Positions 6,177 to 34,116 of a stretch of DNA of 64,000 bases are shown in pieces. The stretch is taken from positions 844 to 64,843 of the forward strand of contig JAVBOA010000012.1 in the NCBI GenBank assembly GCA_031551135.1, given 5' to 3'. Position numbers and translations under genes: made by a program. Below the pieces are notes generated by a model. That model ran no database searches. It worked only from the letters and a program-made list of their open reading frames with translations, and had not been told where the DNA came from. The first letter of the stretch is position 1. Every line of letters begins with the position of its first letter. The stretch comes from Eubacteriales bacterium. GTDB taxonomy: Bacteria > Bacillota > Clostridia > Lachnospirales > JAITVM01.

Positions 6177-6205
6177 TTGACGGCTCATCATCGCTGTGCT
6201 ATTAT
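6177..6205 (+). promoter_or_regulatory. SigA-type extended -10 promoter of the replication operon
   Basis: TTGACG-17bp-TGcTATTAT; motif copy AATACAATATCAATA at 6156-6170 just upstream of the -35. Confidence 0.75.
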
Positions 6206-6319
6206 TATATAGCGGCACATGATACATAGCGGATTTAGTGTTCTGGTAGTGTCATGACATCATCTCTCGATTCGGGAGTTTGATATAGACAAAATATAAA
6301 CATAAAGGAGCATTTTAGA

Positions 6320-7495: not shown

Positions 7496-7538
7496 AATAC
7501 AATCATAGACATATTGTCAATAATAGAGGAGATAACAT

Positions 7539-8651: not shown

Positions 8652-8659
8652 TAATTGAG

Positions 8660-8695
8660 GGCGATATTACCACTGTGATATCGCCTATCACTTTC
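8660..8695 (+). terminator. Intergenic hairpin, possible attenuator or terminator
   Basis: GGCGATATTAC-cact-GTGATATCGCC followed by a weak T-rich tail. Confidence 0.45.
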
Positions 8696-8712
8696 TATTT
8701 GGAGGTGTTAAG

Positions 8713-9171: not shown

Positions 9172-9175
9172 GGCT

Positions 9176-10699: not shown

Positions 10700-10739
10700 C
10701 TTTATTTTTGACTTTTGTGAGGTATGGGGTGATTTTGGT

Positions 10740-11804: not shown

Positions 11805-11816
11805 AAGTTGGTTCTT

Positions 11817-12971: not shown

Positions 12972-12996
12972 GATTTATAAAGGATGGTGATTTTTT

Positions 12997-18476: not shown

Positions 18477-18479
18477 TCA

Positions 18480-18508
18480 TTGACATTGTGCTTGAAATGT
18501 GGTATTCT
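18480..18508 (+). promoter_or_regulatory. SigA-type extended -10 promoter before rnh
   Basis: TTGACA-17bp-TGgTATTCT; motif copy GACACAATATCAATA at 18458-18472. Confidence 0.75.
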
Positions 18509-18564
18509 ATTTATTGTCACATTAAAGAATTCTTCTTGTTAGAGTTTATTTAGGAAGGTGAGAT

Positions 18565-19032
18565 ATGGAAAGAGTAAACTGGGTTTATGCAGATGGAGGT
18601 TGTCGAAATAACCAGTCAAGAGAGAACGTTGGGGGTTGGGGCGTACTGCTAATAAATGGAGATAGTCGCACTGAACTAAAAGGTGCTGCCAGAAACACCA
18701 CAAACAACAAAATGGAACTAACGTCTTGTATAAATGCCCTAAGAGCCATAAAGGACAAATCCATAAAAACCATCGTTGTGATGGATAGCCAATATGTAAT
18801 AAAAGGCATTAATGAGTGGATGGCAGGTTGGATAAAGAAAGGTTGGAAAAGCTCCCAGAAAAAGCCGGTGGAAAACAAAGAACTATGGCAAGAGATTTTA
18901 GAACTGAAAGGTCAGTTCGAAGACATAACTTTTCAACACTGCTATGGTCATGGAGATAATGAAGGCAATAATCGAGCTGATGCGTTAGCAAATGAAGCTA
19001 TGGACGGTAATTTGCCTGAAGAACAGCTATAA
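18565..19032 (+). CDS. rnhA: Ribonuclease HI
   Basis: YADGGC, TTNNKMEL, DSQYV, W.K.GWK, N.ELW and GH...EGN.RAD.LA motifs. Confidence 0.95.
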   Translation: MERVNWVYADGGCRNNQSRENVGGWGVLLINGDSRTELKGAARNTTNNKMELTSCINALRAIKDKSIKTIVVMDSQYVIKGINEWMAGWIKKGWKSSQKKPVENKELWQEILELKGQFEDITFQHCYGHGDNEGNNRADALANEAMDGNLPEEQL

Positions 19033-19051
19033 AATATTATGTAAAGTTACA

Positions 19052-19074
19052 AAACCCTTGATTTATAAGGGTTT
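19052..19074. repeat. Intergenic inverted repeat
   Basis: AAACCCTT-gatttat-AAGGGTTT. Confidence 0.6.
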
Positions 19075-19110
19075 GCCGACATTGAAAACCATATAAAACA
19101 GATATTTGGT

Positions 19111-19857
19111 GTGATAACAGAAAATGAAAGGAATGGTTTTTTGCAAAGGTATATAAAGATTTCAAGTGCTATCTTGATTGCAGGATGCATGGGAATAGGA
19201 TTGTCTTCGTCAATAGTAAAATCAAATGATGAGACTTTAGAGGTAAAAGAGCGAGGTGTAATTAATAAGTCGCCATCAAAGATACAATATCAATACCACA
19301 AAATAAATAGTAATAATTTGGAAACACAAACCGCATCTGAGAAAGAAGTTGTCGTTCAGCAAACTGAGCCGCAAGTCTCACCAACGCCTACACCGGTTCC
19401 TATTGTTGAAAAGGCAGAGGTGATAGTAGAAGAAGTATTTGAACCTTATGATATTCCGCTTTCAACAGAGATTCAAGAATATACATATGAGCTTTGTAAG
19501 GAACGTGGGTTAGAATTTGAGATTGTTTTGGCATTGATGTTTGCCGAAAGTTCCTATCGACCTTCGCTAATTAGTAAAACAAATGATTATGGCATCATGC
19601 AGATAAATAAATGCAACCATCAAAGGCTGAAATCAGAGCTTGGCATTACTGACTTTTTAGATGTTAAGCAAAACATTGACGCTGGAACTTACCTGTTGTC
19701 TGAACTTGCAGCAAAGTATCCTGACAATCATAAGATGCTCATGGCCTACAATTTTGGAGAAGGAGGCGCGAAAAAGCATTGGAATAATGGAGTTTATAGC
19801 AGCAAATACAGCAGAAATATTGTCGGCTTAGCAGAGGAGATTAAAAATGGAGACTAA
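19111..19857 (+). CDS. SLT-domain lytic transglycosylase with N-terminal signal/anchor
   Basis: LALMFAESS (catalytic Glu), GIMQIN, AYNFGEG; hydrophobic N-terminus and PT-rich linker. Confidence 0.85.
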   Translation: MITENERNGFLQRYIKISSAILIAGCMGIGLSSSIVKSNDETLEVKERGVINKSPSKIQYQYHKINSNNLETQTASEKEVVVQQTEPQVSPTPTPVPIVEKAEVIVEEVFEPYDIPLSTEIQEYTYELCKERGLEFEIVLALMFAESSYRPSLISKTNDYGIMQINKCNHQRLKSELGITDFLDVKQNIDAGTYLLSELAAKYPDNHKMLMAYNFGEGGAKKHWNNGVYSSKYSRNIVGLAEEIKNGD

Positions 19858-20458
19858 AACTAAAGACTGGGTTGGTAATCAGAATAGTGTTTATAAGACT
19901 TTAGGAGCATCTAATCATACAGAAAAAGAAAGAGAGCAAGATGACTTCTACGCCACAGAGCCAAAGGCCATTGATGTACTATGTGAGGTTGAGAAATTTG
20001 ATGGACAGGTTTGGGAATGTGCTTGTGGAGAAGGACATTTATCGGAGAGATTAAAGGACTTCGGATATGACGTTATCAGCTCCGACTTAGTAGACAGGGG
20101 TTATGGGAAGAGCGGAGTCGATTTCTTGTCAGTTGGCAAGCAATATTACGGAAACATTGTCACAAATCCTCCTTACAAATATGCCAAAGAATTTATTGAA
20201 AAAGCGATGGAATTAGTTCCGGAAGGTAAAAAAGTAGCCATGTTCTTAAAAGTTCAGTTTCTTGAAGGCAAAGCACGTAAGGAAATGTTTAAGAAGTATC
20301 CTCCCAAAACTGTCTATGTATCAAGCTCAAGATTACTTTGCGCTAAAAACGCACAGTTTGATGACATGAAAGCCGGTGGTGGGAGTGCAGTCGCCTATTG
20401 CTGGTACATATGGGAAAAAGGATTTTATGGCGAGACGACTTTGAAATGGGTTAATTAG
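19847..20458 (+). CDS. Small phage amino-DNA methyltransferase (m6A or m4C)
   Basis: DFYAT, SAM-binding ECACGEG, catalytic NPPY, WYIWEKG. Confidence 0.8.
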   Translation: METKTKDWVGNQNSVYKTLGASNHTEKEREQDDFYATEPKAIDVLCEVEKFDGQVWECACGEGHLSERLKDFGYDVISSDLVDRGYGKSGVDFLSVGKQYYGNIVTNPPYKYAKEFIEKAMELVPEGKKVAMFLKVQFLEGKARKEMFKKYPPKTVYVSSSRLLCAKNAQFDDMKAGGGSAVAYCWYIWEKGFYGETTLKWVN

Positions 20459-20634
20459 TTACTATATCAACTCGTCACAAATGGGGAAGGAAATAATGAA
20501 GCAGAAAAATAACATGAGAGATATTAACAGCATGAAAATCTTGATTCATTCTTGACAGACATATTATAAATAATCACAGGAGAACTTGCAAGTTATTAGT
20601 GTGGCCACACCTCCCCGATCAGGAGGTAATTATC

Positions 20635-21831
20635 ATAAAAAAAATACTTATAGGTGGAAGCCCCTGTACTCACTGGAGTATAGCTCAGAAAAACAATCGT
20701 GAAACAAAAGCAGAAGGTTTAGGATGGGAATTATTCAAAAACTACCTTATAGCAAAAGAAAAATTCAAACCAGATTTCTTTCTCTATGAAAATAACAAGT
20801 CAGCAGCGCAGCCGATTAAAGAACAAATAAGCAGAGAACTTGATGTTGAGCTTCAATATATCAATAGCTCATTAGTGTCGGCACAAAATAGGCAAAGATT
20901 TTACGCTCACAATATTCCGAATGTTCCTCAGCCTGAGGATCGAGGAATTTTTCTGAAAGATATTTTGGAAAGTGGTATTCCTTGTAGAAATGAAAAAGCT
21001 TATTGTTTAGATGTGAATTATTATAAAGGTGGAAATCTAACAAGCTTTAATAAGCAAAGTGGACAAAGATTGATGGTTGCTGAACCAATCTGTGTTGCAC
21101 AGAGAGGTAGATACTCAACTAAGGATGGTTCAATAGAACAGCATTTTGAGGCAAGGAACGATGGAAAGACAAATGTCTTAACTACCGTCACAAAAGACAA
21201 CTTAATCGCAGAGCCTTTAAGAATCGGAAGTATCGGAAGTGATAGTCAAGCTCATCGAGTATACTCTGTATATGGAAAATCAATAAATCTTGTTGCAAAT
21301 GGAGGTGGTCAGGGTGCAAAAACAGGACTATATGCAGTGCCAGTTGACAAATCCTTTGATGCGCAGCCTGTATATACTGTTGTCAACGGAATGATTTCGA
21401 TTAACGAAAAAATATATCCGATAAAGCTTCCTGATGGATATTATATTATTCGTAAACTGATTGTTACTGAGGCCGCAAGGTTGCAAATGATGCCTGACGA
21501 CTATTGTAGGGCGGTAAGTAATTCTCAAGCATACAAATGCCTTGGTAATGGATGGACAGCAGAAGTGATTATACATATTTTAAAACACATGAATATTCCT
21601 CGTGACGAAGAATTGCTTGTTTTGTCTATGTATGACGGGATAGCAACAGGAAGATATTGCTTTGATAAAATGGGATACAAAAATATAAGGTATGCCGCGT
21701 GTGAAATTGACAAGTTTGCAATCAAAGTGGCAAATAGCAATTATTCAGACAACATTCAACTTGGCGATGCATTTCAAGTTAGAGACGAGCAATGGAGTTT
21801 CGAAGACATTCTCTTCAATAGAGCTGGTTAA
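20635..21831 (+). CDS. Circularly permuted C5 cytosine DNA methyltransferase, possibly multispecific; likely non-AUG start at ATA 20635 (track start GTG 20599)
   Basis: Motif order is IV (GGSPC), VI (ENN), VIII (QNRQRFY), long variable region, IX-X (EAARLQ...LGNGW), then I (LSMYDGIATG), II (CEID), III (LGDAF). Confidence 0.85.
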   Translation: MKKILIGGSPCTHWSIAQKNNRETKAEGLGWELFKNYLIAKEKFKPDFFLYENNKSAAQPIKEQISRELDVELQYINSSLVSAQNRQRFYAHNIPNVPQPEDRGIFLKDILESGIPCRNEKAYCLDVNYYKGGNLTSFNKQSGQRLMVAEPICVAQRGRYSTKDGSIEQHFEARNDGKTNVLTTVTKDNLIAEPLRIGSIGSDSQAHRVYSVYGKSINLVANGGGQGAKTGLYAVPVDKSFDAQPVYTVVNGMISINEKIYPIKLPDGYYIIRKLIVTEAARLQMMPDDYCRAVSNSQAYKCLGNGWTAEVIIHILKHMNIPRDEELLVLSMYDGIATGRYCFDKMGYKNIRYAACEIDKFAIKVANSNYSDNIQLGDAFQVRDEQWSFEDILFNRAG

Positions 21832-21886
21832 AGGCTTTGTATTGGAAAGGTTTACAATAATCTACTCATAGAATAGGAGTTGAGAT

Positions 21887-22498
21887 ATGGATCAAAAGAA
21901 TCTACTTACAGAAGCTAAAAAATTACAGGTTATATCAAGGTTGTCAAAAGAATTTTGGGAACTTGAAAATTCACTTCCAAAAGAAATATTTGACACAGAA
22001 AACTTTTATTTCGCTGGAGGATGTATCTATAGTATATGGAATGGGAAGCCACCGAAAGACTACGACATCTTTTGCACTTCCAAAGCAGCTGTAGATAAGC
22101 TAAAAAAATGGTTTGAAGCTAATCCTCACAGAGCAAATTTCACTACTGAAAATGCAATTACAATGGGGAAATATCAGTTTATTTTGAAATACATAGGAAA
22201 GCCTGAAGTTGAAGTAGCCAAATTTGACTTCAAACACAACTGTTGCTACTTCCATAGATACGAATTAAAAACACTCTACGGATATGAATTTTTGGATAGC
22301 AAGAAGCTGGTGTTCAACTCGGCTAGACCAAGAGATGTCCTTAATATCGTCACACGAATTCCAAAATTCATTGAAAGAGGTATGGAAATTTCTCAGAAAG
22401 AGATTTTAGAGATACTGGAAGTTGGGACAAGACCTACTAGATTATACGGAGAAAGAACAAGGTTAATCCATAGGATGAACAGCAATGACAACTATTAA
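21887..22498 (+). CDS. Pol-beta-like nucleotidyltransferase (poly(A) polymerase/CCA head-like)
   Basis: FAGGCIYS...PKDYDIF signature and downstream FDF. Confidence 0.65.
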   Translation: MDQKNLLTEAKKLQVISRLSKEFWELENSLPKEIFDTENFYFAGGCIYSIWNGKPPKDYDIFCTSKAAVDKLKKWFEANPHRANFTTENAITMGKYQFILKYIGKPEVEVAKFDFKHNCCYFHRYELKTLYGYEFLDSKKLVFNSARPRDVLNIVTRIPKFIERGMEISQKEILEILEVGTRPTRLYGERTRLIHRMNSNDNY

Positions 22499-22515
22499 TT
22501 CAAGGAGGCACATTT

Positions 22516-22995
22516 ATGAAGGTTGTAATCGCTACCGAAGGAACTGATTTCTTTCTCAGCTATAAAGTTATCTTAGAATATTGCAAAATCAAAGGATATG
22601 ATGTTTACCCTTATGTGGAGCATTGCGAATATAATCCAAGCATGTGCTGGTATAAACTTTGTTTTGATCCCGATGAACTTGACAGTGGACATATGGTTTG
22701 CCTTCTAAACAGGAATTACGGTGAAACATTTGAGTGTGAAATCATTGAAGATGATATGTGGCTGTACCCAGATGAGTTGTTGCATATTGAGTGCAGTTCT
22801 TGCGCCGATGTTAGAACCGATCCAACATTAATCAAAGCAATTGAAAATATTGGTGTAGAAAACAGCGGTAGAAAAAATGATATGTTCAAATGTGTGTTGA
22901 AAATCCATGATATCCCTGATGATGTTGAATGGGAATTAGAAATCTACGACTGCGGTGGTGAAGCGATTAGAGAAGTATCGAGGATTTGGGATTAA
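22516..22995 (+). CDS. Hypothetical phage protein
   Basis: AAGGAGG RBS; 159-aa acidic ORF within the operon. Confidence 0.7.
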   Translation: MKVVIATEGTDFFLSYKVILEYCKIKGYDVYPYVEHCEYNPSMCWYKLCFDPDELDSGHMVCLLNRNYGETFECEIIEDDMWLYPDELLHIECSSCADVRTDPTLIKAIENIGVENSGRKNDMFKCVLKIHDIPDDVEWELEIYDCGGEAIREVSRIWD

Positions 22996-23086
22996 TGCTG
23001 AGAACAACAATTTCTTAGACGAATTTGATAATAATATGCTTAAATAGACTCATTATCAATAACACATAATTAAGAGGTGTGGGTAT

Positions 23087-23257
23087 ATGGAACAGTTTAT
23101 ATGTTTTCATAGGAATTACCTGAAATTTAAAGGCGGTGTCAAATACAAAATTACCAAAATTACCTCTAAACATTTCTTTGTCGGCAGCACAAAAATCAGT
23201 CGGCATCTCAGTGAGCTGTTTTGGACAGGTGATGTAATTAGGCAAAACAAAAATTGA
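23087..23257 (+). CDS. Small basic hypothetical protein (56 aa, not in track)
   Basis: GAGGTG RBS 7 nt before ATG; MEQFICFHRNYLKFKGGVKYKITKIT...RQNKN; fills the gap before nrdJ. Confidence 0.6.
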   Translation: MEQFICFHRNYLKFKGGVKYKITKITSKHFFVGSTKISRHLSELFWTGDVIRQNKN

Positions 23258-23276
23258 TTATAATAGGAGCGTTTTG

Positions 23277-25544
23277 ATGAAGGTACAAGAATGGTTGGGC
23301 GAAGATAATAAGCTTGCAATTGATATTTGGGAAAAGAAATATAGAAATGGCAATGAAAATTTCGATGAATGGCTAAATAGAGTGAGCGCAGGGAATGAAG
23401 ATTTAAAAGAGTTAATTACTAAAAAGAAATTTCTCTTTGGTGGCAGAATTCTCAGCAACAGAGGTTTAAACAAGGAAGGTAAGAAAATCTCTTACAGTAA
23501 TTGCTATGTCCTTTCTCCGCCAGAAGATAATATTGAAAGCATTTTTGAAGCTGCAAAGAAATTGGCGAGAACCTTCAGCTATGGTGGCGGTTGTGGAATC
23601 GATATTAGTAAACTGTCTCCAAGAGGTGCGGTAATAAACAATGCGGCAAAATCAACGTCAGGGTCAGTTTCTTTTATGGATTTATATGATTTGGTCACAA
23701 GCCTTATAGGACAGTCGGGAAGACGTGGAGCATTAATGCTATCTATTGACTGTACTCATCCTGATTTGGAAGAATTTATTGGGATTAAGTCTGACCTGAG
23801 CAAAGTAAATAAAGCAAACATCTCTGTGAAGATAAACGATGGTTTCATGCAAGCCGTCAAGAATAAAACAGATTTCGAATTGAAGTTTATTAGAGAAGAA
23901 ACTGGCGAAGAGATTATAAAGAAGATAAAGGCAGACGAGTTATTTCATAAGCTTGCAGAGATGAACTGGGATTACGCCGAACCGGGGATGCTGTTTTGGG
24001 ACAGAATTAAAAGCTATAATCTTCTAAGCAATAACGATGATTTTCAATACGCTGGAGTGAATCCCTGCGCAGAGGAACCCCTTCCTGCCGGTGGAAGCTG
24101 TTTGCTGGGAAGCATAAATCTCGCCGAGTATGTTACTCAAAACAAGCAATTTGACTATGTTAGTTTCAGATATGATGTCAAAAAGGCAATCGTAGCTCTT
24201 AATGAAGTATTAGACGAAGGTCTTCCTCTTCATCCGTTGGAAGAACAACAAAATAGTGTTCGTGATTGGAGACAGATTGGACTTGGGATTATGGGTCTTG
24301 CTGATTGCTTAATTAAAATGGGCATTAAATACGGTTCAAAGAGAGCAGTGTACACATGCGACCTTATAGGTTTTAACATGGCTGAAGCATCTCTTTATTC
24401 CTCAGCAATTTTGGCAAGTAAATATGGTACTTATCCAAAGTACAACAATAAGGTTCTGGAAACTGAGTTTTTTCAGATGAATGCGTCAACTGAGACAATA
24501 GAAATAGTCAAGAAACATGGTTTAAGAAACTCTCAGCTTTTGACATGCGCTCCAACAGGCACTATCTCAACCATGTTGGGTGTAAGTGGCGGTATCGAGC
24601 CGATTTTTGCAAACTACTACATAAGAAAAACTCAGTCTCTTCATAATGAAGACTTTGAATATAAGGTTTACACTCCTATCGTAAAAGAATATATAGATTC
24701 AAATAATATTACTGATGACGCTGATTTGCCTGATTATTTTGTTACGTCTCAGCAGTTAGATTATGCAAATCGGATTGAAATGCAAGCAATCTGGCAAAGT
24801 CATATTGATGCTTCAATATCTTCCACCGTTAATCTGCCAAACTCTGCAACAGTAGAAGACGTGAAAAAGCTTTACTTATATGCTTGGGAAAAAGGATTGA
24901 AAGGCATAACAGTTTATCGGGATGGCTGCAAAAGAAGTGGAATTCTTATTACTGAGCCTAAATCCAAGGAAACCAGTAAACCCGAAGGAGCATCGGAAAG
25001 TACTGAGCTAAAGCGTGGAGATGTAATTCAAGTAAAAGATGATGTAGTTGGCAAGAAGAGAAAGCTGATGTCTGGATGTGGCACACTTCATTGCAAGGCG
25101 TTCTTTGACCCGGCAACAGGAGATATTCTTGAGACTTATTTTAGTAAGGGTTCATCAGGAGGTTGTAATAATTTCATGATTGGACTTTCGAGGATGATTT
25201 CTCTATCGGCAAGAGCTGGATGCGACGTTTACACAATAGCTGATCAGTTAGACAGTTGTGGTGTTTGCGCTTCTTATGCGGTCAGAACTGCGACCAAGAA
25301 AGATACCTCGAAAGGCTCGTGCTGTCCAATCGCAATCGGAAAAGCCCTCATCGATATGTATGAAGAATTTCAGGCTGAACTAAATTTAAAAATCAAGACC
25401 CCTCCAGTTGTAAAATCTGCAAAAAAGCAGACCATTCAAGAAGAGAAAAAGGGCTATGCCAATTGCCCTGAATGTGGAGAGAGTTTAGTGTTCGAGGGCG
25501 GTTGTAACACCTGTAAATCATGCGGATATTCAAAGTGTTCATAA
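23277..25544 (+). CDS. nrdJ: Class II (adenosylcobalamin-dependent) ribonucleotide reductase
   Basis: [31 protein letters not shown] and a C-terminal Cys-rich zinc ribbon (CPECG...CKSCGYSKC). Confidence 0.93.
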
Positions 25545-25558
25545 AAAAGGAGAAAAAT

Positions 25559-25993
25559 ATGCTGAAAATAATAAGAACAAATAAAGAATTACCTTTGCCT
25601 CAGTACCAGACAGAAGATGCTGCTGGAATGGATTTATATGCGAGTATCAACGAACAGATAACGCTTAAGCCACTTGAGAGAAAGCTTATTCCTGCCGGAA
25701 TTATGACAGAAATACCGTCAGGCTATGAAATTCAAATTAGACCTCGCAGCGGATTGGCCTTAAAAAATGGCATTACTGTACTCAACAGCCCCGGCACTAT
25801 AGATCCTGACTACAGAGGAGAGATTGGAGTTATTCTAATAAATCTAGGCAACAAAGATTTCATAATTAATAAAGGCGACAGAATAGCACAAGCAGTGATT
25901 AATAAAGTTGAAAGGTTTTTTATAACAGAGGTAAATGATTTAGGAGAAAGCGAAAGAGGTTCTGGAGGCTTCGGCTCAACTGGAAAAAAATAA
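25559..25993 (+). CDS. dut: Trimeric dUTPase
   Basis: [24 protein letters not shown] and [10 protein letters not shown] motifs. Confidence 0.96.
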
Positions 25994-26029
25994 AACATAT
26001 CTTTATTGATATGATTTCAATAATGAAAG

Positions 26030-26659
26030 GTGAATAGTATGTATATGATTTGCGACTATATTATTCCAACTGATAAGTATCCATGTGTTTCAAATTGTAA
26101 AGTTTATGGCTTAGAAAATGCAATCCTTGTAAGCGGCTATCCTATGCTGGCTTCATTAAAAAAACAGGATATTAATTCTACAGATGTCCATCGAGCGGTA
26201 AAGCTCGGTGGTTCTGCCAAAGGTGAAGGGCATGACAATTTCCTAAATGGAGTAATCGTTCAGTTTGACTTAACTTTTTCAAATAAAGCTTGGGTTGAGC
26301 TTGAAAGATACCATTTCATTGATTTCATCAGCAGTCAATCAACGATGCACAGAATTGCTAAGTTCGACTTGGATGAACAGTATAACAGCTATGTTGATCC
26401 TCGCATCATTAAAATTATGAATGAGCTGAAAGATAAATATAATCGGACAAAAAATTCGGATGATTATTTAAAGCTTCTTTATTCTAATCCGGCAGGATTC
26501 ACGATCACAGCAGGGATGACGACAAATTACAGACAATTGAAAACCATATATGCACAGAGAAAAACACACAGACTTCCTGAATGGAGAGAGTTCTGCAAGT
26601 GGATGGAATCACTGCCGTTGTTTAAAGAGATTTGTTTGAGGAGAAATTCGCATGAGTAA
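26030..26659 (+). CDS. ThyX/Thy1-fold protein (divergent flavin-dependent thymidylate synthase-like)
   Basis: GH..FL, ELERYH...SSQST and TNYRQL..IY.QR...RLPEWR resemble ThyX segments, but the canonical RHRxxSxxxxSxR is altered. Confidence 0.6.
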   Translation: MNSMYMICDYIIPTDKYPCVSNCKVYGLENAILVSGYPMLASLKKQDINSTDVHRAVKLGGSAKGEGHDNFLNGVIVQFDLTFSNKAWVELERYHFIDFISSQSTMHRIAKFDLDEQYNSYVDPRIIKIMNELKDKYNRTKNSDDYLKLLYSNPAGFTITAGMTTNYRQLKTIYAQRKTHRLPEWREFCKWMESLPLFKEICLRRNSHE

Positions 26660-26714
26660 AGAACTGAAAGTTATTCTCCATGAGATTTTTGAAGAATTGG
26701 AGGCTATCAAATGA
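26652..26714 (+). CDS. 20-aa micro-ORF MSKELKVILHEIFEELEAIK, coupled to both neighbours
   Basis: GAGGAGA RBS; ATG overlaps the end of the upstream gene and TGA overlaps the ATG of the kinase. Confidence 0.45.
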   Translation: MSKELKVILHEIFEELEAIK

Positions 26715-27226
26715 TTATTTTATTAGGTGAGTCTGCATCAGGAAAATCCACTATAGAAAAAGAACTGGTAAAACGCGGGCTTATAAATATTGTTTCCTAT
26801 ACAACAAGACCTATTAGAGCTGGAGAAATTGACAGTGTTGATTATCACTATATTTCAGATAAAAAGTTCGAAGAGCTTCTTCAGAAAGATTTTTTTGCAG
26901 AATATACCAGATACAATGGTTGGAGTTATGGAATTGCAAAGGAAGATTGTAAAGACAATACTGTTGTAGTAGTTGAGCCACATGGATTTAGACAATTGCT
27001 GAAACTTAGAGACATCAATATTTCCTCATTCTACATTAAAGTTTCGGAAAATGATCGTTTAGTTCGAATAGCGCAGCGTGGCGATAATATTATGGAAATA
27101 TTTAGACGCATAATATCTGATCAAGGTGTATTTCAAGGAATTGAAGAAGATGTTACCTATATATTGGACGGAACTATGCCTGTAACTGATAATGTTGAGA
27201 AAATATTGCATACCTTGTTACCGTGA
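26711..27226 (+). CDS. Guanylate kinase-like (d)NMP kinase
   Basis: GESASGKST, YTTRPIRAGE.D.VDYHY and YNGWSYG motifs. Confidence 0.85.
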   Translation: MIILLGESASGKSTIEKELVKRGLINIVSYTTRPIRAGEIDSVDYHYISDKKFEELLQKDFFAEYTRYNGWSYGIAKEDCKDNTVVVVEPHGFRQLLKLRDINISSFYIKVSENDRLVRIAQRGDNIMEIFRRIISDQGVFQGIEEDVTYILDGTMPVTDNVEKILHTLLP

Positions 27227-27244
27227 AAACATGACTAAAGCAGA

Positions 27245-27427
27245 TGTTCTGATAGATGGTGTGTATATAAATTTGAGAGGCATATAACAGCTTGATGTAC
27301 AAAATGTCCAATTGATAAACATGGGATAGAAATTGTGAAATCAAACATGCATAAGACTTCGGAATTTATTACAATAAAAAAGACTTTTAAGGATTTAGAG
27401 ACGAGAGGGGTTAATGGATTTGAATAG
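27245..27427 (+). pseudogene. Probable remnant of a small Cys-containing phage gene
   Basis: Frame reads CSDRWCVYKFERHITA*CTKCPID...GFE* with an internal TGA at 27293 and no intact start. Confidence 0.3.
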
Positions 27428-27500
27428 TTTAGCGTATAATTGTGTAATTACAGAGCCTTCACCTGAATATAATTCTATTGTGGGTAAGGAGGGGCTTAAA

Positions 27501-27674
27501 ATGATTAAAAAAGATGAAAAACATGAGGAGAGTAATCATTTTAAAGTTATACACACTATCCCTAAAATGTCGATTAGTGACAGAGAAAAAAAGACACAAA
27601 TGATAGGAAATGATCTTTATGAAGTGTTTATTAGAATCCAATCACAACTTGCTTCTGAAAGTGTATATAATTAA
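27501..27674 (+). CDS. Small protein upstream of the integrase, candidate recombination directionality factor
   Basis: AAGGAGGGG RBS, ATG 27501, 57 aa; function inferred from size and position only. Confidence 0.55.
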   Translation: MIKKDEKHEESNHFKVIHTIPKMSISDREKKTQMIGNDLYEVFIRIQSQLASESVYN

Positions 27675-27676
27675 TA

Positions 27677-27722
27677 TTGACAGTGAAGGTTATTGATGCT
27701 ATTATATCGGTAACCTTTTTTG
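27677..27722 (+). promoter_or_regulatory. Integrase promoter overlapping an intrinsic terminator-like hairpin
   Basis: TTGACA-17bp-TGcTATTAT; AAGGTTATTGAT...ATCGGTAACCTT stem followed by a T run. Confidence 0.65.
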
Positions 27723-29261
27723 TTTGGGGTGATGAAAACGAATGCGATTTATGTTAGGCAATCAGTGGACAGACCTGATAGTATCTCCATTGAAAGCCAA
27801 GTAGAATATTGCAAATATGAAGTAAGAAACGAACAATTCCAACTTTATGCAGATAAAGGCTATAGTGGTAAAAATACTGAACGCCCGGAATTTCAAATGA
27901 TGATGAATCATATTAAAGATGGAATAATTAAAAAGGTAATAGTATATAAACTTGATAGGATAAGTAGGTCAATTTTAGACTTTTCTAATATGATGAATAT
28001 CTTTCAAGATTATGGAGTCGAATTTGTGTCAACAACAGAGAAATTTGACACATCTACACCAATGGGACGAGCTATGCTCAATATTTGTATTGTATTTGCT
28101 CAACTTGAACGGGAAACTATTCAAAAACGTGTGTCGGATGCGTATGCTTCGCGTAGTAAGGCTGGTTTTTATATGGGAGGACGCGTACCATACGGATTTA
28201 AGCGCATTCCAGTTACAATAAATGGTATTAATACTTCACAGTATGCGCCAATAGATATAGAGGTAGAGCATTTGCAGTTGATTTTTGAAAAGTACTCTAA
28301 ACCATCAACCTCAATAAGCGATGTAGTCAGATATTTTAGGGAACATAACATTGAGAAATCGAGGGGAAAAGAGTGGAGTACGTCACGTATTTCAGAAGTG
28401 CTTCGTAATCCGATTTATGCAAAAGCAGACATGAATTTATACAATTTTTATATCTCTCGCGGAACGGAAATCGTTAATATGCCTGAAAGTTTTATTGGCG
28501 AAAACGGTTGTTATCTATACACCAAGGACGTGAATAGTTTTGTAGGTGCCAAAAAGGATATGGCGCAATACAATAACATGATACTTGTGCTTGCTCCACA
28601 TAAAGGTATAGTTGATTCAGAAACATGGATTAAGTGTAGGTTAAAAGGGGAGCAAAATGTGCAAATACCAAACAGAAAAAAAGTTCGAGTGACATGGCTT
28701 TCAGGAAAATTAAAATGTGGGAAATGTGGACATGCATTACGTTACAATAAATGGATAGGTAAGACTGTGGTAAATGAATACTACTTATGCAGCGAAGTGT
28801 GTGGAAATCGTAGATGCAAGGGCTTTGGTGCAGTGAAAAAAGATAAAATTGAAGCAGAAATACTTAAACAACTTGAGGCAAAAGTAAAAAGTATAAAAAT
28901 AGAACAAAGTCAACCGAGAGAAAACCATATTGAGATTAATGCTATTAAAGCCCAAATAGCAATAAAAGAGAATGAAATTCAAGAAATAATGGAAAATCTT
29001 AAAGGTGCAAATTCTGCTGTATTAAAGTATATTAATACTACAGTAGAAAAATACGACGACGAAATCATAGAAATGAAAAATAATCTTATTAGACTTGAAA
29101 TGAGCAACAGTGGTAAAAAACAATTAGACACTGACACAATCGAAAAAACATTCAAGCATTGGGAAAAAATATCTATTGATGAAAGACAAGCTATTTCAGA
29201 TATATTAATCAAAAAGGTGCTAGTAACTAAAGACACGATTGAGATAGTATGGAAAGTCTAA
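27720..29261 (+). CDS. Large serine recombinase (prophage integrase)
   Basis: IYVRQS (catalytic Ser), GYSG...RP.F, VYKLDRISR, AQLERE, PYG, zinc ribbon CGKCG...YYLC...C and a coiled coil. Confidence 0.96.
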   Translation: MFGVMKTNAIYVRQSVDRPDSISIESQVEYCKYEVRNEQFQLYADKGYSGKNTERPEFQMMMNHIKDGIIKKVIVYKLDRISRSILDFSNMMNIFQDYGVEFVSTTEKFDTSTPMGRAMLNICIVFAQLERETIQKRVSDAYASRSKAGFYMGGRVPYGFKRIPVTINGINTSQYAPIDIEVEHLQLIFEKYSKPSTSISDVVRYFREHNIEKSRGKEWSTSRISEVLRNPIYAKADMNLYNFYISRGTEIVNMPESFIGENGCYLYTKDVNSFVGAKKDMAQYNNMILVLAPHKGIVDSETWIKCRLKGEQNVQIPNRKKVRVTWLSGKLKCGKCGHALRYNKWIGKTVVNEYYLCSEVCGNRRCKGFGAVKKDKIEAEILKQLEAKVKSIKIEQSQPRENHIEINAIKAQIAIKENEIQEIMENLKGANSAVLKYINTTVEKYDDEIIEMKNNLIRLEMSNSGKKQLDTDTIEKTFKHWEKISIDERQAISDILIKKVLVTKDTIEIVWKV

Positions 29262-29305
29262 TACACTGTCAATTGACCGTTTTGGGGAAGCACTTAGAAT
29301 CGTAC
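29261..29305. other. Predicted attR junction (P-B'), crossover near GG 29285-29286
   Basis: Directly after the integrase stop; host CotJC-like frame begins here; ATAC (left) and GTAC (right) lie pseudo-symmetrically with a 5-bp offset. Confidence 0.6.
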
Positions 29306-29346
29306 AGGATTATTTGGACAGCAAGCGCATGTTTTACGCAAAATAA
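29278..29346 (+). pseudogene. cotJC: 3' fragment of a cotJC-like spore coat manganese catalase gene split by the prophage
   Basis: Frame reads RFGEALRIVQDYLDSKRMFYAK*, resembling the CotJC C-terminus as recalled (…REREIVHxQRF(G/R)EA…); no start codon; followed by a terminator. Confidence 0.75.
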
Positions 29347-29352
29347 TCAATC

Positions 29353-29392
29353 AGTCCCTGAAACTCGAAATAAAAGAGTCAGGGACTTTTTT
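29353..29392 (+). terminator. Rho-independent terminator after the cotJC fragment
   Basis: AGTCCCTG...CAGGGACT followed by TTTTT. Confidence 0.8.
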
Positions 29393-29432
29393 ATAGAAAA
29401 TTTTTTAGTGCATAGTGGTATTCAACAAATTT

Positions 29433-30359
29433 TTACAATTGGTATTTATGTTTTAAAAATGAAATTCCGTTTGATTTAGGCCCCCTCGATTCGCTTACGG
29501 AAATGGAAAGCATAATCAAAGTTATGATATATGGCAGCATACTCAGCAAATCAACAGGAATATCAATTATTTTAGTTATTTGAATCTGCACTTTCAGCGC
29601 CTCGAAAAAGGCGAAAAGCAGAGAAGCGGCGACAGCTCTTTTGATATTCCAACGTCCCAAAATCATTGCGGCAAGTGCGATATATCCTCTGCCCGCAACC
29701 ATATTTTCTTGGAATCTGTCGAGGTTACCTATCGAGAGGTAAGAGCCGCCGAGACCTGCCAACGCACTTGAAATTAACATTGCGCAGTATCTTATTCTCC
29801 ATACATTTATTCCAACGCTTTCGGCCGTTTTTGGGTCTTCTCCGACACTCACAAGGCGCAGACCCACGGGAGTGTGATACAAAACATAATATGCTGCAAT
29901 AGCTACAACTATAAGTATATAGAAATATGGTGACATCTGTGACAGAAATTTCCCGATAACAGGTATATCGGAAAAAATTTCGGATGTTTTTACGGTATTT
30001 ACTTTCGGACTGTTTCCTCTTGTCTTAAATATTGCTTCCAAAAGGAAAGTCGTAACACCTGATGCAAATAGGGATATTCCAAGACTGCTTACGGGTTGTG
30101 AGCCACCGAACTCAATGGTAATAACGGCGTGAATTAAGCCGAGAGCCATTCCGCCCAAAATACCGCAAAGCATTCCGATTAACATATTTCCGCCGCTGTA
30201 ATAAGCTCCCAAAACCGATGTAAACGAACCCATTAACATCATACCTTCTATACCGATGTTAATAACGCCAGATTTTTCGTTAATAGTCGCGCCGATTGCA
30301 GCAAGACCAAGGGGAATTGTTAATAAAAGTGTAGATATAATCAGCGAAGAAAGATTCAT
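29433..30359 (-). CDS. Nucleoside/simple-sugar ABC transporter permease (NupC-like)
   Basis: EKSGVINIGIEGMML, GLRL..VGEDP..A...GINV, GRGYIALAA.ILG.W. Confidence 0.9.
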   Translation of the reverse strand: MNLSSLIISTLLLTIPLGLAAIGATINEKSGVINIGIEGMMLMGSFTSVLGAYYSGGNMLIGMLCGILGGMALGLIHAVITIEFGGSQPVSSLGISLFASGVTTFLLEAIFKTRGNSPKVNTVKTSEIFSDIPVIGKFLSQMSPYFYILIVVAIAAYYVLYHTPVGLRLVSVGEDPKTAESVGINVWRIRYCAMLISSALAGLGGSYLSIGNLDRFQENMVAGRGYIALAAMILGRWNIKRAVAASLLFAFFEALKVQIQITKIIDIPVDLLSMLPYIITLIMLSISVSESRGPKSNGISFLKHKYQL

Positions 30360-31408
30360 TTCGAAAGTCCTCCCTTCGTTTTTCTATAAAGATGGCTGAA
30401 AACAAATTGTCCTGCTATGAACAAAACTACCAAACCCTGTATTACATTAATTAAGCTTGTCGATACTCCCATTTTCTGCATTTCTGTCGAACCGGTACTA
30501 AGAATACTGAAAAGCAGAGCAGAAAGGATAACAGCGAAAGGATTGTTTTTTGCCATAAGAGAAACAGGTATTCCTGAATAGCCGTATCCCGGCGAAAATC
30601 CCGAAGATAGAAAATGCTGTCTGCCCAAAAGCTCAAGCCCGCCGCCCATTCCAGCCAGCGCGCCCGATATTACCAGCCCTAACAATGCCAGAAATGTAAC
30701 ATTCATTCCGGCATATTCTGCGGCATCTTTATTAAGTCCGACTATTTTTATTTTAAAGCCAAAAACTGTCTTATCTAAAATAATATATACGGCTACTACG
30801 GCAATCAGCGCAAAAACAATCGCCAGAGATACGCCGTAAGGCATTGGAATAATATACGGAAGTTTGGCGGTATCCTGAATTTTTGGAGTTGAGGAAGCTA
30901 AACTGTCGTTGCCCATATATTCGTTTATCAAAAATTGAACCAGAAAAATTGCAAGATAATTCAGCAAGATTGTGGAAATTACAACATTTACTTTTCTGGA
31001 TTCTTTTAAATAAGAAGCTATCAGCGCCCATAATGCTCCTCCGATTATAGCCGCCAAAACCGCCGCAATAGAATGAACGAAAGGAGGAAGCTTTACAAAA
31101 AGTCCCACGATTGTGGCGAATAATGCGCCGACATAAAGCTGTCCTTCTGCGCCTATATTGAATATTCCGACTTTGGCGGAAAAAACAAGTGCAAGGCCCG
31201 TGAGAATCAGCGGCACAGAATTTGTGATTGTGTCGGAAATTCCATATTTGCTACCAAGAGCGCCTTTCAGTAAAGCTCCGTATGCTTCGAACGGGTTGTG
31301 GCCGGAGATTTGCAGGAATATCCCGCCGACAAACAATGCTCCGAAAAGGCTTAAAATCATTAAAAATGCTTCTTGATGCTTGTCTAAAAATTTCAAAACA
31401 GCCGACAT
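30356..31408 (-). CDS. ABC transporter permease (NupB-like)
   Basis: FNIGAEGQ, STILLNY, GLN..AAEYAGM motifs. Confidence 0.9.
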   Translation of the reverse strand: MSAVLKFLDKHQEAFLMILSLFGALFVGGIFLQISGHNPFEAYGALLKGALGSKYGISDTITNSVPLILTGLALVFSAKVGIFNIGAEGQLYVGALFATIVGLFVKLPPFVHSIAAVLAAIIGGALWALIASYLKESRKVNVVISTILLNYLAIFLVQFLINEYMGNDSLASSTPKIQDTAKLPYIIPMPYGVSLAIVFALIAVVAVYIILDKTVFGFKIKIVGLNKDAAEYAGMNVTFLALLGLVISGALAGMGGGLELLGRQHFLSSGFSPGYGYSGIPVSLMAKNNPFAVILSALLFSILSTGSTEMQKMGVSTSLINVIQGLVVLFIAGQFVFSHLYRKTKGGLSK

Positions 31409-32926
31409 TTAACAACCTACCTTTCCGACCATCATACGGCCAATTTTTTCTTTATCAAATTCGCTGCTTTCGAGGCAACCGGTTATTTCGCCGCCGCACA
31501 TAACAATGATTTTGTCACAAAGCGCAAGTAATTCATCAAGCTCAAAAGAAATCATAAGAACGCCTTTATTTTCGTTTTTCAGATGAATCAGCTTATCGTG
31601 CACAAATTCAATCGCGCCGATATCAAGGCCTCTCGTTGGGTGCGCGACTAATATAAAATCAGGATTTTCGCCGGATTCTCTTGCTAAAATTACTTTCTGC
31701 TGATTACCTCCGGATAATGAACCAAGATTCAGAAATTCTGAAGAAGTGCGTATATCATAATCTTTTATTTTCTGTTTTGCGTTTTGATTAATATTTGCTC
31801 TATTCAGAAAATATTTTCTGCTTCTGAAGATTTCTTTATCTTCAAGCCCCATAATAAGATTATCTTCGATGGAAAAATCCAGAACAAGACCTTCTTTATG
31901 CCTGTCTTGCGGAACATATCCGAAACTTTTATTGCGTCTGTCTTTTACATGCAGATTTTCTACGTTTTCGCCATTAAATTGTATAGTTCCGTTTTGGTTG
32001 CGGTATACACCGGAAAGAAGATGTATCAATTCGCTTTGCCCGGAGCCGTCCACACCTGCAATACCGACAATTTCACCTTTTTTAACTTCAAAACTAATAT
32101 TATTTAAATTTTTTCCGCTTTTATCGGAATAATTTAAGCACTCGACTTTTAATGCAGGTACGCCGGATGTTGCGGATTTGCGTTCGGTTTTGCCGCCTAT
32201 TTTTGCGCTTCTGCCGATCATTTTTTCTACAATTTCATCAACGCTTGTATTTTTTGTTATCAAATCACCTGTAAGTTTTCCGAGTCGGAAAACTGTTATT
32301 CTATCAGTAAAATCCATTACTTCCTGCAGTTTATGAGTAATAATTATTATTGTTTTACCAAGTTTTTTCAATTTTTGAATTATATCGCCTAATTCTCTTA
32401 TTTCTTGCGGAGTAAGAACCGCCGTAGGTTCGTCCAGGATTAGGATATCGCTTTTCCTATAAAGCGCTTTCAATATTTCGACTCTTTGCTGCGCGCCTAC
32501 AGAAATATCTTTTACAAGAGCTTTTGAGTCAACAAACAATGAATATTCATCCATGAGTTTTTCGATATCCGCTGCAGCTTTTTTGCGGTCAAGAAAAAAC
32601 TTTGAACCGTATTCGGTGCCAAGGATAATATTTTCGGTTGTTGTAAGCGTTGGGATCAGCCTAAAATGTTGGCTTACCATACCAATACCCATATTGATAG
32701 CGTCTTTTGTGCTTTTATAGTTTACTTCACTGCCCTTGATAAAAATTTTTCCGCTTGTTTTTAAAGTTGAGCCGTAAATCATATTTACAAAAGTTGATTT
32801 TCCGGCACCATTTTCTCCGACAATGGCGTGAACTGAATTATCGGTAATTTCTATAGAAATATTGTCATTGGCAATAAAATTCCCATATTTTTTTGTTAAG
32901 TCCTCTGTTTTTATAATAGGATTCAT
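31409..32926 (-). CDS. ABC transporter ATP-binding protein with two ABC domains (NupA-like)
   Basis: GENGAGKST, LILDEPTAVL, LSGGNQQK, PTRGLDIGA. Confidence 0.93.
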   Translation of the reverse strand: MNPIIKTEDLTKKYGNFIANDNISIEITDNSVHAIVGENGAGKSTFVNMIYGSTLKTSGKIFIKGSEVNYKSTKDAINMGIGMVSQHFRLIPTLTTTENIILGTEYGSKFFLDRKKAAADIEKLMDEYSLFVDSKALVKDISVGAQQRVEILKALYRKSDILILDEPTAVLTPQEIRELGDIIQKLKKLGKTIIIITHKLQEVMDFTDRITVFRLGKLTGDLITKNTSVDEIVEKMIGRSAKIGGKTERKSATSGVPALKVECLNYSDKSGKNLNNISFEVKKGEIVGIAGVDGSGQSELIHLLSGVYRNQNGTIQFNGENVENLHVKDRRNKSFGYVPQDRHKEGLVLDFSIEDNLIMGLEDKEIFRSRKYFLNRANINQNAKQKIKDYDIRTSSEFLNLGSLSGGNQQKVILARESGENPDFILVAHPTRGLDIGAIEFVHDKLIHLKNENKGVLMISFELDELLALCDKIIVMCGGEITGCLESSEFDKEKIGRMMVGKVGC

Positions 32927-33060
32927 TGGCTATTCCTCCAAAAACGGGGCTGTATGCAAAAAGCAACAACCCCGAGATATACTGACGAACGAATAGATTT
33001 GTACACCTGTTCCATTCGGCAGAACAGCAATTTGCTAAAATAATTTGATTAAATTGCTTA

Positions 33061-34116
33061 TTACTCAACAGTATCCGGAACTTGAATTTCTCCGCTGATG
33101 ATTTTGTCTCTGAAAGAGGTGATTTTATCCATTACATCTTGAGGGATTTTAACCCCAAGCTCTTCGTTTTTAGGGTTGAAACGGATATCCACGCCGTTTT
33201 CGCTTAAACCGTTTTTAGTGATACCGGCAGTAAAAGATTTATCTTTTGCATAAGCTGTAATCAGGTTTTCAACAAGAGTATCAACTGATTTAACATGGGA
33301 GGCCATGATTTTATCTGACTTGTCAAATTGGCCTGTGGCTGCGCCCAAAGGAATAAAATCATTTTCGTTTGCTGCTTCAAAAACGCCTAAGTTACATGCT
33401 CCGGCACATGTAAAAATAAATTTTGCACCGTTTTTCGCCATAGCTGTGGCAGTTTCTTTTCCAAGAGCAGGGTCAGAGAAAGAGTTTGTGTATACAACTA
33501 AAATATCAGCATCTGTTTTGCCTACGGCTTTCGCGCCTTCAACGAATCCGGCTTCGAAACGTTTTAAAACAGGATTTCTCACTCCGGATATATATCCGAC
33601 TTTGCCGTCGGACATAAGGCCTGCAAAAGCTCCCACTAAATAAGCGGCTTCTTGCTCTTTAAACTGCGCAGACATAACATTTGGTAAATCGCTCGCTTGT
33701 CCGTCAATTTGAATAAATTTTGTGTCGGGAAATTCTTTTGAAACAACAAGAGTAGCTTCCTCCAAAGAAGACGCGCCTACAACAATCAGCTCATTGCCGT
33801 CTCTTGCCAGAGTACGGAGAGTCGATTCCAATGAACCTGCATCTTTCGGAGTGACAACAGTCGCTTCGATATTGGCGTTTGCGGCATCGGCAGCCATAAC
33901 GCCGGCATTGATAGCGTCGTTGAAAGCTTGGTCACCAAGTCCGGCAGTGTCTGTAAGATATCCTACTTTAATAACATCCTGCGCAGCTTGTTCGGCTTGC
34001 GATTCTGTGGCAGGTGCGCCGGAAGAATCTCCAGTATTTGTATTTGGCTGGCTGCATGACGTAAACAGCATCATCGCTGCAACAAGCGTAACTGAGAGTA
34101 CTCTCTTCATTTTCAT
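33061..34116 (-). CDS. BMP-family ABC substrate-binding lipoprotein
   Basis: Lipobox FTSC, GLGDQAFN, FKEQEAAYLVG, RFEAGF..G, F.DPALGKE.A. Confidence 0.9.
   Translation of the reverse strand: MKMKRVLSVTLVAAMMLFTSCSQPNTNTGDSSGAPATESQAEQAAQDVIKVGYLTDTAGLGDQAFNDAINAGVMAADAANANIEATVVTPKDAGSLESTLRTLARDGNELIVVGASSLEEATLVVSKEFPDTKFIQIDGQASDLPNVMSAQFKEQEAAYLVGAFAGLMSDGKVGYISGVRNPVLKRFEAGFVEGAKAVGKTDADILVVYTNSFSDPALGKETATAMAKNGAKFIFTCAGACNLGVFEAANENDFIPLGAATGQFDKSDKIMASHVKSVDTLVENLITAYAKDKSFTAGITKNGLSENGVDIRFNPKNEELGVKIPQDVMDKITSFRDKIISGEIQVPDTVE

Follow-up and report, generated by a model that had tools for sequence, protein, structure and literature searches.

Two large serine recombinase elements, one of them an SPbeta-like prophage, split the spore coat gene cotJC of an uncultured gut Clostridia bacterium into three pieces

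Introduction

A few sporulation genes are known to be interrupted by elements that are excised in the mother cell, and nearly all work on such elements comes from Bacillus and two pathogenic clostridia. The skin element interrupts sigK of Bacillus subtilis and C. difficile (PMC10747680; PMC5025042), and yin is located in yabG of C. botulinum, for which a factor identified with AlphaFold and a putative SigK promoter are described (PMC10747680). In Bacillus cereus ATCC 10987 the gin element, with GirC and GirX, interrupts gerE (PMC5595907), and the prophage SPbeta leaves spsM, with sprA being constitutive and sprB expressed from a sporulation promoter, and this in the mother cell only (PMC4191935). 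The coat gene cotJC has been mentioned in this context as well: it is interrupted by skin-like elements in Laceyella sacchari (10.1101/2022.02.25.481979), it is named as an insertion target in one sentence citing Abe 2013 (10.1101/2021.11.22.469490), and in C. difficile a CotJC homologue adjoins the prophage phi027 (PMC11222575). In the accessible parts of these sources, the mentions of cotJC concern Bacilli or C. difficile and take one line each, without junctions, excision data or a double interruption. Among the heterocystous cyanobacteria, Calothrix NIES-4101 carries nifBHDK in 13 parts.

Here we describe a window of 64,000 nucleotides (nt), positions 844-64843 of contig C33 from a Eubacteriales bacterium assembly (G000; 60 contigs, 92.8% complete), in which the right end of an SPbeta-like prophage abuts the last codons of cotJC. 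A first-pass annotation of this window had proposed that the prophage splits cotJC and may restore it by leaving during sporulation. The remainder of the gene is found on a second contig, C21, where cotJC is cut once more. We therefore distinguish element 1, a small non-phage element, and element 2, the prophage, each with its own large serine recombinase (LSR) gene. That the two unrelated LSR elements which hold cotJC in three pieces are both excised as developmental switches in the mother cell is the reading that we consider probable; the earlier reading of a switch formed by prophage and cotJC is supported and is extended by the second element. A genome of the same genus with an uninterrupted cotJC (G001) served as reference.

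Three Pieces of cotJC

The stop codon TAA of the prophage integrase gene (29259-29261) is followed by 16 bases (29262-29277) and then by a frame (29278-29343) that reads RFGEALRIVQDYLDSKRMFYAK, which confirms the position sixteen bases past the integrase stop that had been given for this orphan frame. It is identical to the intact CotJC of G001 (198 amino acids, aa) in 17 of 22 positions, at residues 172-193 (E 5e-11 in a single comparison), and the matched part is preceded in CotJC by the motif REREIVH (ExxH). The frame was thus rightly recognized as the CotJC C-terminus just after ExxH. Its first five codons, RFGEA (29278-29292), repeat the sequence with which the middle cotJC piece on C21 ends and are common attachment site (att) core or phage arm, unambiguous host sequence being read from 29293 on. 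The last 17 codons (29293-29343) occur once in G000. A terminator had also been noted after the frame, and a hairpin with a T run is indeed present there; the hairpin has -17.1 kcal/mol (z -4.35), and one of 200 shuffles was equally stable. A simple terminator scan gave no match at the hairpin, whose loop is longer than the scan permits.

On C21 the order is glyA (on the minus strand), cotJA, cotJB, the 5' piece of cotJC, about 3.9 kb of foreign DNA, a middle piece of cotJC, and foreign DNA up to the contig end. Both cotJA (PF11007, 60.5 bits) and cotJB (PF12652, 94.1 bits) are above the cut-offs. The 5' piece, MWVYEKK...MDQYGGP, runs on into GCKRI and a stop, and the middle piece, GGPDGEL...REREIVHFQRFGEA, runs on into NRGIESE and a stop. 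Therefore, cotJA, cotJB and a 5' part of cotJC, which were expected at the other prophage end, are present on C21, where cotJC breaks off after ...REREIVHFQRFGEA at the left boundary of the prophage. No look-alike that could replace the 3' end is provided by the phage at this left attachment site (attL), as the frame continues there for only 7 unrelated residues. The three fragments tile without loss onto eight intact CotJC proteins from related genomes and overlap only in GGP and RFGEA. The frames of all three pieces are open, with about 85% identity to the sequence of G001, where glyA-cotJA-cotJB-cotJC is uninterrupted. The nearest named CotJC records belong to metagenome-assembled Clostridia that are labelled Clostridiales, Eubacteriales, Ruminococcaceae, Acutalibacteraceae, and Oscillospiraceae.

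A Pfam search with Mn_catalase in all 60 contigs of G000 gave two matches only, both on C21 (136.2 and 22.7 bits), the middle cotJC piece reaching 134.4-136.2 bits to PF05067 (cut-off 27). A second cotJC copy that renders the split harmless was considered and rejected, as this search found no other Mn-catalase or cotJC copy in the 92.8%-complete assembly. The cotJ operon of B. subtilis is reportedly controlled by sigmaE, as the title of a 1995 paper by Henriques is said to state, and by analogy cotJC of G000 would be expressed in the mother cell; by our own reading, a CATATGCT box is located upstream of cotJA. Since sigK is intact (330.9 bits, cut-off 298.65) and SpoIVA is present (755 bits), G000 is equipped for sporulation, in agreement with the view of the host as a sporulator. 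The SpoIIP-like protein encoded in the window reaches 118 bits, slightly below its cut-off of 123.15. An interruption of sigK in addition to cotJC was ruled out, sigK being intact.

Element 1

Element 1 consists of four open reading frames (ORFs) encoding proteins of 241, 293, 65, and 484 aa, the last being the recombinase with the Resolvase, Recombinase and Zn-ribbon domains of LSRs, all above the cut-offs. The 241-aa ORF has weak regulator-like matches including a weak helix-turn-helix match, the 293-aa ORF encodes a VCA0040-like/DUF368 membrane protein, and no phage structural, lysis or replication genes were found in element 1 with Pfam and PHROGs. A crossover in CGGTGG, the common core of attL and the right attachment site (attR), gives CAG TAC GGT GGA CCT GAC, i.e., QYGGPD, and the in-frame product of element 1 removal reads QYGGPDGEL, both as in G001. 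Excision of the prophage alone, which had been proposed as a possible way to restore cotJC, would thus not be sufficient, because element 1 also interrupts the gene, at codon ~30; the middle cotJC piece has no ribosome-binding site.

The 65-aa ORF (C21:58392-58586), whose stop overlaps the recombinase start (TAATG), has homologues adjoining the recombinase in 11 of 29 related loci. In all 12 loci, G000 counted, CATANNNT is found at -50 to -11 of the start of this ORF, against a background of 5.6% of the 40-nt windows in the same loci (binomial tail 9e-16, which is overstated since the loci are kin). In several of the loci the sequence is CATACACT or CATACAAT, with a stretch rich in ATA located 15 nt upstream. 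The G000 site, AC-N17-CATATATTA, is the sole such match in 20 kb (0.81 expected), and a scan of the whole window for this type of site gave 2 matches versus 1.99 expected, with none near the integrase. These sites resemble the sigmaE/sigmaK promoter consensus of B. subtilis. The 65-aa protein is a candidate for the directionality factor of the element 1 recombinase; it has no match in the phage collection, Pfam or PHROGs, also below threshold, and no usable match in the protein atlas.

The SPbeta-Like Prophage

If C21 and C33 are adjacent, the prophage has a size of about 112 kb in total (81.3 + 30.1 kb, with a gap of ~0.5 kb). It is inserted at cotJC codons ~176-180, between RFGEA and L; one part begins at C21:60509 and occupies the rest of that contig, and the other covers C33 from its start up to window position 29292. 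Its left arm encodes a terminase large subunit, a minor tail protein, an endolysin, an exonuclease, and a 2,646-aa ORF, with phage-family proteins up to the contig end. The right arm has PHROGs matches to a DnaB-like helicase, a primase, a 1,055-aa DNA polymerase (865 bits), an exonuclease V/Dda-like helicase, and a methyltransferase, as well as Pfam matches to ribonucleotide reductase, dUTPase, and guanylate kinase. Moreover, a 947-aa YonO-type RNA polymerase (C21:121803-124646; phrog_8308, 832.5 bits) is 49-50% identical to the SPbeta and phi3T records over ~80% of its length. The designation SPbeta-like therefore holds with respect to the YonO-type RNA polymerase and the terminase, tail, lysin and replication genes, but not for the integrase, which is far from known phages, its best match in the phage collection being 32% identical. 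Membership in the genus Spbetavirus is unlikely because the host class differs; this comparison concerns single proteins.

The integrase matches the Pfam domains Resolvase (123.5 bits), Recombinase (50.1 bits) and Zn_ribbon_recom (36.3 bits), all above the cut-offs, and the PHROG 95 integrase with 323.9 bits. Y7, R9, Q10 and S11 (Y-R-Q-S motif) are invariant in our 30-sequence alignment of integrases (A2). To the element 1 recombinase it is 23% identical. In both elements, the LSR gene is the last gene and is directed toward attR, with a small conserved ORF directly upstream. The attL of the prophage reads TTTGGTGAAGCA and its attR TTTGGGGAAGCA (window 29281-29292), and the core was defined by comparing attL (C21:60490-60520), attR, and the uninterrupted cotJC of G001. 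In silico, a crossover in this core leads to the in-frame RFGEALRIV, as in G001. By our reading, the phage arms flanking the core form an imperfect inverted repeat; all four junction arms of the two elements are single-copy in the assembly, and the same core adjoins related integrases in four other genomes (G033, G154, G017, G037). The coordinates of the features are collected in Table 1.

Table 1. Features of the split cotJC locus; positions refer to the window unless contig C21 is named.
Feature	Position	Strand	Remarks
Element 1	C21:56165-60066		3,902 bp; at cotJC codons ~30-32, between QYGG and PDGEL; 6-bp core CGGTGG
Prophage, left arm	C21:60509-141796		off-window
Prophage, right arm	1..29292		replication/nucleotide-metabolism module, then integration module
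86-aa ORF directly upstream of integrase	27414..27674	+	candidate recombination directionality factor
sigma-70/sigmaA-type promoter-like site	27677..27705	+	TTGACA, 17 nt, TATTAT; TG before second hexamer
Large serine recombinase (integrase)	27720..29261	+	likely start ATG at 27732
attR of prophage	29262..29300		core TTTGGnGAAGCA at 29281-29292; phage arm left, host cotJC right
3' piece of cotJC	29278..29346	+	22 codons and stop at 29344-29346; reads RFGEALRIVQDYLDSKRMFYAK and stop
Intrinsic terminator of cotJ operon	29353..29393	+	hairpin 29353-29387, then six-T run
Host flank: two BPD_transp_2 permeases, ATPase, Bmp/PnrA-like binding protein (ATP-binding cassette transporter)	29433..34116	-	Pfam; end of mobile DNA

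The sigmaA-type site before the integrase gene agrees with the consensus in 11 of 12 positions, a consensus match only, and is the best in the scanned region. Homologues of the 86-aa ORF are found directly upstream of related integrases in four loci (L022-L025) and, more weakly, in five further loci. Like the 65-aa ORF, it has no match in Pfam, PHROGs (below threshold too) or the phage collection, and no usable match in the protein atlas. Complex prediction of the 86-aa protein with integrase residues 140-509, using our own alignments A1 and A2, gave 0.76, 0.77 and 0.78 in three runs versus 0.00 for three controls, with a contact agreement of at least 64% and a predicted local distance difference test value of the partner of at least 55. 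The mark of 0.77 was reached by 58 of 80 solved complexes and by 2 of 110 mismatched pairs. The predicted interface comprises integrase residues 372-393 and 463-509 together with residues 41-50 and 57-82 of the small protein. The model supports binding of the 86-aa protein to the integrase but does not prove it, and the protein can be regarded as a candidate directionality factor of the prophage.

The prophage has several further features. At its left end (C21:60654-64695), a PD-(D/E)XK gene (PDDEXK_2), which is covered by an RNA-library contig, is located together with an agr-like quorum-sensing set of LytTR response regulator, GHKL histidine kinase, and AgrB; in the coordinates of locus L003 this region is counted as 6654-10695. 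Two tyrosine-recombinase-like genes are present at window 2730-3779 and C21:126549-127394 (PHROG "integrase" families 5830 and 216). Inside the prophage lies an IS607-like element (C21:141427-141796 and C33:1-600; full copy C52:94436-95923) with the serine recombinase TnpA and with TnpB, according to our own reading of the translations, and it breaks the assembly: the end of C21 and the start of C33 are both within it, the full-length copy is located on C52, and about ten contigs end in this element. The end of C21 and the start of C33 have zero direct overlap, the link being the shared multi-copy insertion sequence.

The Rejoined Form in Metagenome and RNA-Library Contigs

Contigs of three runs from one invertebrate gut metagenome study were compared with C21:54501-62500, namely X1 (DNA of sample S1, the possible source of the assembly) and the metatranscriptomes X2 (sample S2) and X3, the latter containing next to none of the stretch. 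A 1,024-nt contig of X2, with 0 differing letters versus G000, covers L003 1607-2164, i.e., cotJA, cotJB and the 5' piece of cotJC, and continues with 6067-6508. At the joint it skips 3902 letters, and 6 letters fit either side, which is the predicted CGGTGG core. One RNA-library contig thus supports the precise removal of element 1. Its last 24 letters depart from the prophage, the match stopping at C21:60508, the last base of the GAAGCA core. Counted from C21:60502 (T versus G), the sole base telling attL from attR, 6 + 24 gives 30, which is k-1 for 31-mers; this word size was assumed to be that of the index and fits the 30-nt overlaps between the X1 contigs. We infer that the contig ends where the path of the empty bacterial site (attB) would merge with that of attR. 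Two X1 contigs, one ending and one beginning there, overlap by 30 nt exactly at base C21:60502, as a co-existing form with the joined phage site (attP) would produce; both observations can only be hints as they come from contig ends. X2 further contains element-internal contigs, with one of them beginning at the exact junction, and contigs of the source run cover each junction. An exact 30-nt stretch of the 3' piece of cotJC had no match in the metagenome contigs.

Depth was available as one figure per contig and was left out of the ranking of forms. Other joints (e.g., 2102 to 6371 in X2 and 2098 to 6375 in X3) have sides of less than 30 letters at 90% likeness, a kind of joint that often stems from other organisms, and were treated as cotJC of relatives. 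Within element 1, at C21:58131-58180 (L003 4131-4180), lies a palindromic repeat of ~47 bp that has 321 short BLAST matches across the genome and shows a depth spike of more than 1,000 in both runs; this copy of a genome-wide repeat suggests that element 1 has long been resident in G000.

Proposed Mechanism and Alternative Explanations

If both elements act as switches, then in the sporulating mother cell a small factor made from a sigmaE/sigmaK-type promoter would turn the respective recombinase to attL x attR recombination, and both elements would leave as circles. The three cotJC pieces would be joined in frame and the operon would yield full-length CotJC, the forespore chromosome retaining both elements.

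Several points weigh against such a double switch. The timing of the excision in sporulation and in the mother cell is assumed by analogy to SPbeta/spsM, skin/sigK and gin/gerE, and the small ORFs are putative directionality factors. The sigmaE/sigmaK consensus is that of B. subtilis and is low in information, and a sigmaE/K site before the 86-aa ORF, convincing in some relatives (e.g., L022), is a weak match only in G000. In the contigs of X1, element 1 is present in the integrated form only. Excision of the prophage would be read from contig ends, which cannot show starts or ends, and as an RNA library may hold DNA and S2 differs from S1, the joined contig could also come from a co-existing strain with an empty site. 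Adjacency of C21 and C33 is plausible and relies on the multi-copy IS607-like ends. The synteny 3' of cotJC differs from G001, whose CBS-domain neighbour sits on C28 in G000, and therefore gives no support for the join of C21 and C33. In C. difficile, insertional mutants of two CotJC homologues are reported to have reduced catalase activity and no significant defect in coat formation (PMC11222575), and thus a loss of cotJC might be tolerated.

One alternative is a polymorphism among strains, with ordinary mobile DNA in a dispensable coat gene and the joined contig coming from a co-occurring strain or from cells with sporadic excision. Joined contig and integrated assembly originate from S2 and S1, respectively, contigs drop rare variants, an RNA library may contain DNA, G001 proves that empty sites exist in the genus, and the C. 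difficile mutants lack a significant coat defect. However, the joined contig has 0 differences to G000 over 1,000 nt, the same X2 library holds element-internal contigs including the one from the exact junction, and the three pieces have kept open frames at ~85% identity to G001. The -10 box of mother-cell type in 12 of 12 loci of the 65-aa ORF points in the same direction, since an ordinary mobile element needs none, and altogether we regard such a polymorphism as rather unlikely. Ordinary lysogeny, with cotJC merely as a conserved attB, excision upon lytic induction, and spores that either lack CotJC or contain a truncated one ending ...RFGEANRGIESE, appears improbable to us. A truncated CotJC of this kind is impossible, since the interruption by element 1 falls at codon ~30 and the middle piece lacks a ribosome-binding site. 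The X2 contig reads through the cotJ operon and departs from the prophage precisely at the core. The sigmaA-type promoter of the integrase gene and the weakness of the sigmaE/K site before the 86-aa ORF in G000 are in favour of lysogeny, but the accessible description of SPbeta likewise combines a constitutive integrase with a factor under sporulation control (PMC4191935). Also in favour of lysogeny, the prophage seems complete in its genes for packaging, tail, lysis and replication, and virion or induced DNA could likewise explain why the contigs of the DNA run break at the core. Finally, an artefact of assembly or binning, with C21 and C33 from different organisms or with chimeric junctions, is hardly credible. 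The genome is in 60 contigs, is 92.8% complete, and has its C21-C33 link in a repeated insertion sequence, but both junctions of element 1 and the left junction of the prophage are inside single long contigs (C21 has 141.8 kb) and each junction is covered by contigs of the source run. Furthermore, the piece on C33 supplies exactly the 17 missing codons, the two prophage arms carry complementary phage modules, and the same layouts recur in independent genomes.

Comparison with Known Elements

The prophage resembles SPbeta in spsM in its very large size, its temperate nature and its YonO-type RNA polymerase, in its insertion within the coding sequence of a gene for the spore envelope, and in its large serine integrase at the attR end behind an apparently vegetative promoter; a separate small direction factor would be expected here, too. 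In contrast to SPbeta, it belongs to an uncultured gut Clostridia bacterium, its target is cotJC, a second element lies in the same gene, and the integrase is distant from the phage collection. The directionality factor gene of SPbeta is located at the far end of the prophage, whereas the candidate described here is directly upstream of the integrase gene. Element 1 resembles gin in gerE: it has a few kb and no phage genes, its serine recombinase gene is accompanied by a small partner ORF, and it lies in a small sporulation gene. It differs from gin in the target gene, the host class, and the cargo of a VCA0040-like/DUF368 protein and a 241-aa protein; the two are likened by the description of gin with GirC and GirX. 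Like skin and yin, both elements are serine recombinase elements in a gene of the mother cell, which cotJC probably is; skin and yin are excised as circles, and for them a small factor from a sigmaE/K-dependent promoter is shown or proposed. Unlike the situation with skin, sigK is intact in G000 and the interrupted gene is a coat gene and not a regulator, and therefore a switch would alter the make-up of the coat and not the developmental programme. A further parallel is given by the fragmented nif genes, which belong to a terminally differentiating cell and from which several recombinase elements all have to be removed. Phylum, cell type and at least some of the recombinases are different there, and no homology is implied.

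Our literature search gave no account of cotJC being interrupted twice or more often, of an SPbeta-like phage inserted in this gene, or of the two small ORFs described here, with prior listings being possible in supplements or in Abe 2013. Sporulation-gene intervening elements are thereby extended to a lineage of uncultured gut Clostridia. New are also the two unrelated elements in one coat gene of 0.6 kb, one of them an SPbeta-like giant prophage outside Bacillus, the natural sequence evidence for a rejoined gene, and two families of small proteins, candidate directionality factors of new serine integrases whose att sites are defined.

cotJC Cut Sites in Other Genomes of the Order

A sample of 301 genomes of the order was searched for the element 1 recombinase and for CotJC. 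Among 29 loci with homologues of the element 1 recombinase (38-54% identity), 19 hold a cotJC piece bounded at residues ~28-32; 12 of these have the layout of G000, in five the recombinase gene is convergent on the 5' piece, and in two it is located downstream of the 5' piece on the same strand. For the prophage integrase, cotJC is bounded at RFGE in the four closest of 29 loci (46-64% identity), three in the layout of G000 and one (G037) in opposite orientation. The same boundary is found in 5 of 80 loci on viral contigs (43-49% identity to the prophage integrase), and single-protein scans for relatives of this integrase gave no match in genome contigs or viral contigs. In both recombinase families the gene may thus be directed toward cotJC from one or the other side of a given cut site (G037/L022; L058, L061, L064, L067, L072), and therefore the att site is flipped relative to the gene in some members. 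Four further loci (L026-L029 in G270, G050, G081 and G141) contain relatives of the integrase with 45-47% identity away from cotJC. They have another conserved target, because their common downstream motif, a reverse-strand frame ending ...TVYKG, differs from cotJC.

A search with intact CotJC gave a match in 182 of the 301 genomes. The boundaries were surveyed in the best 150 of 339 matches, with 146 genomes being classed by eye from the ends of local alignments, and all numbers are accordingly approximate. In this set, ~82 cover the whole protein, ~20 start at residues 19-30 and ~17 at 54-62, ~15 end at residues 130-140, and 12 end at 178-183, with six of the latter uncertain. Several pieces of cotJC are found in G022, G141, G148 and G255; G037 has the pieces 1-34, 29-65 and 56-181, and in G017 the boundaries are near residues 31, 134 and 178. 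At the boundary near residue 60, an LSR gene is directly upstream in one of three loci examined (G073). At the boundary near residue 137, six loci were examined with an LSR profile; five had no LSR gene directly beside the cotJC pieces, and in L170 one was located 2.5 kb away. Besides its split cotJC, G148 has three extra partial copies (residues ~98-192) within 18 kb (C3:116136-134012).

It may be, with about equal chances in our view, that cotJC is a landing pad with at least four sites (~30, 60, 137 and 178) throughout the order, in which the gene lies in three, four or more pieces (G000, G037, G022, G017, G141) and would require several separately controlled excisions in the mother cell, each with its own sigmaE/K-timed factor. 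If this is true, it would be the sporulation counterpart of the fragmented nif genes of heterocysts. An order-wide pattern of this kind would make cotJC suited to asking how several mobile elements share one developmental gene and why serine integrases keep choosing genes of the mother cell.

Further Observations

To the right of the transporter genes in the host flank, the window encodes a citrate lyase, an aspartate kinase, a homoserine dehydrogenase, the SpoIIP-like protein, and LigA. Two other sporulation-related loci of G000 are conspicuous. At C58:63316-63937, a sigma factor gene that we read as sigH-like is in two overlapping frames, which could be due to a frameshift or an assembly error. 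At C60:98005-99947, a gene for a 473-aa LSR is followed directly 3' by the C-terminal two-thirds of a sigmaF/sigmaG-like gene (spore_sigF positions 69-229, 194 bits), whose N-terminal part was not found in the G000 assembly, and which may be another interrupted sporulation gene or else cargo of an element. In total, G000 has 12 matches to the Recombinase domain, three of them in tandem at C27:42243-45863.

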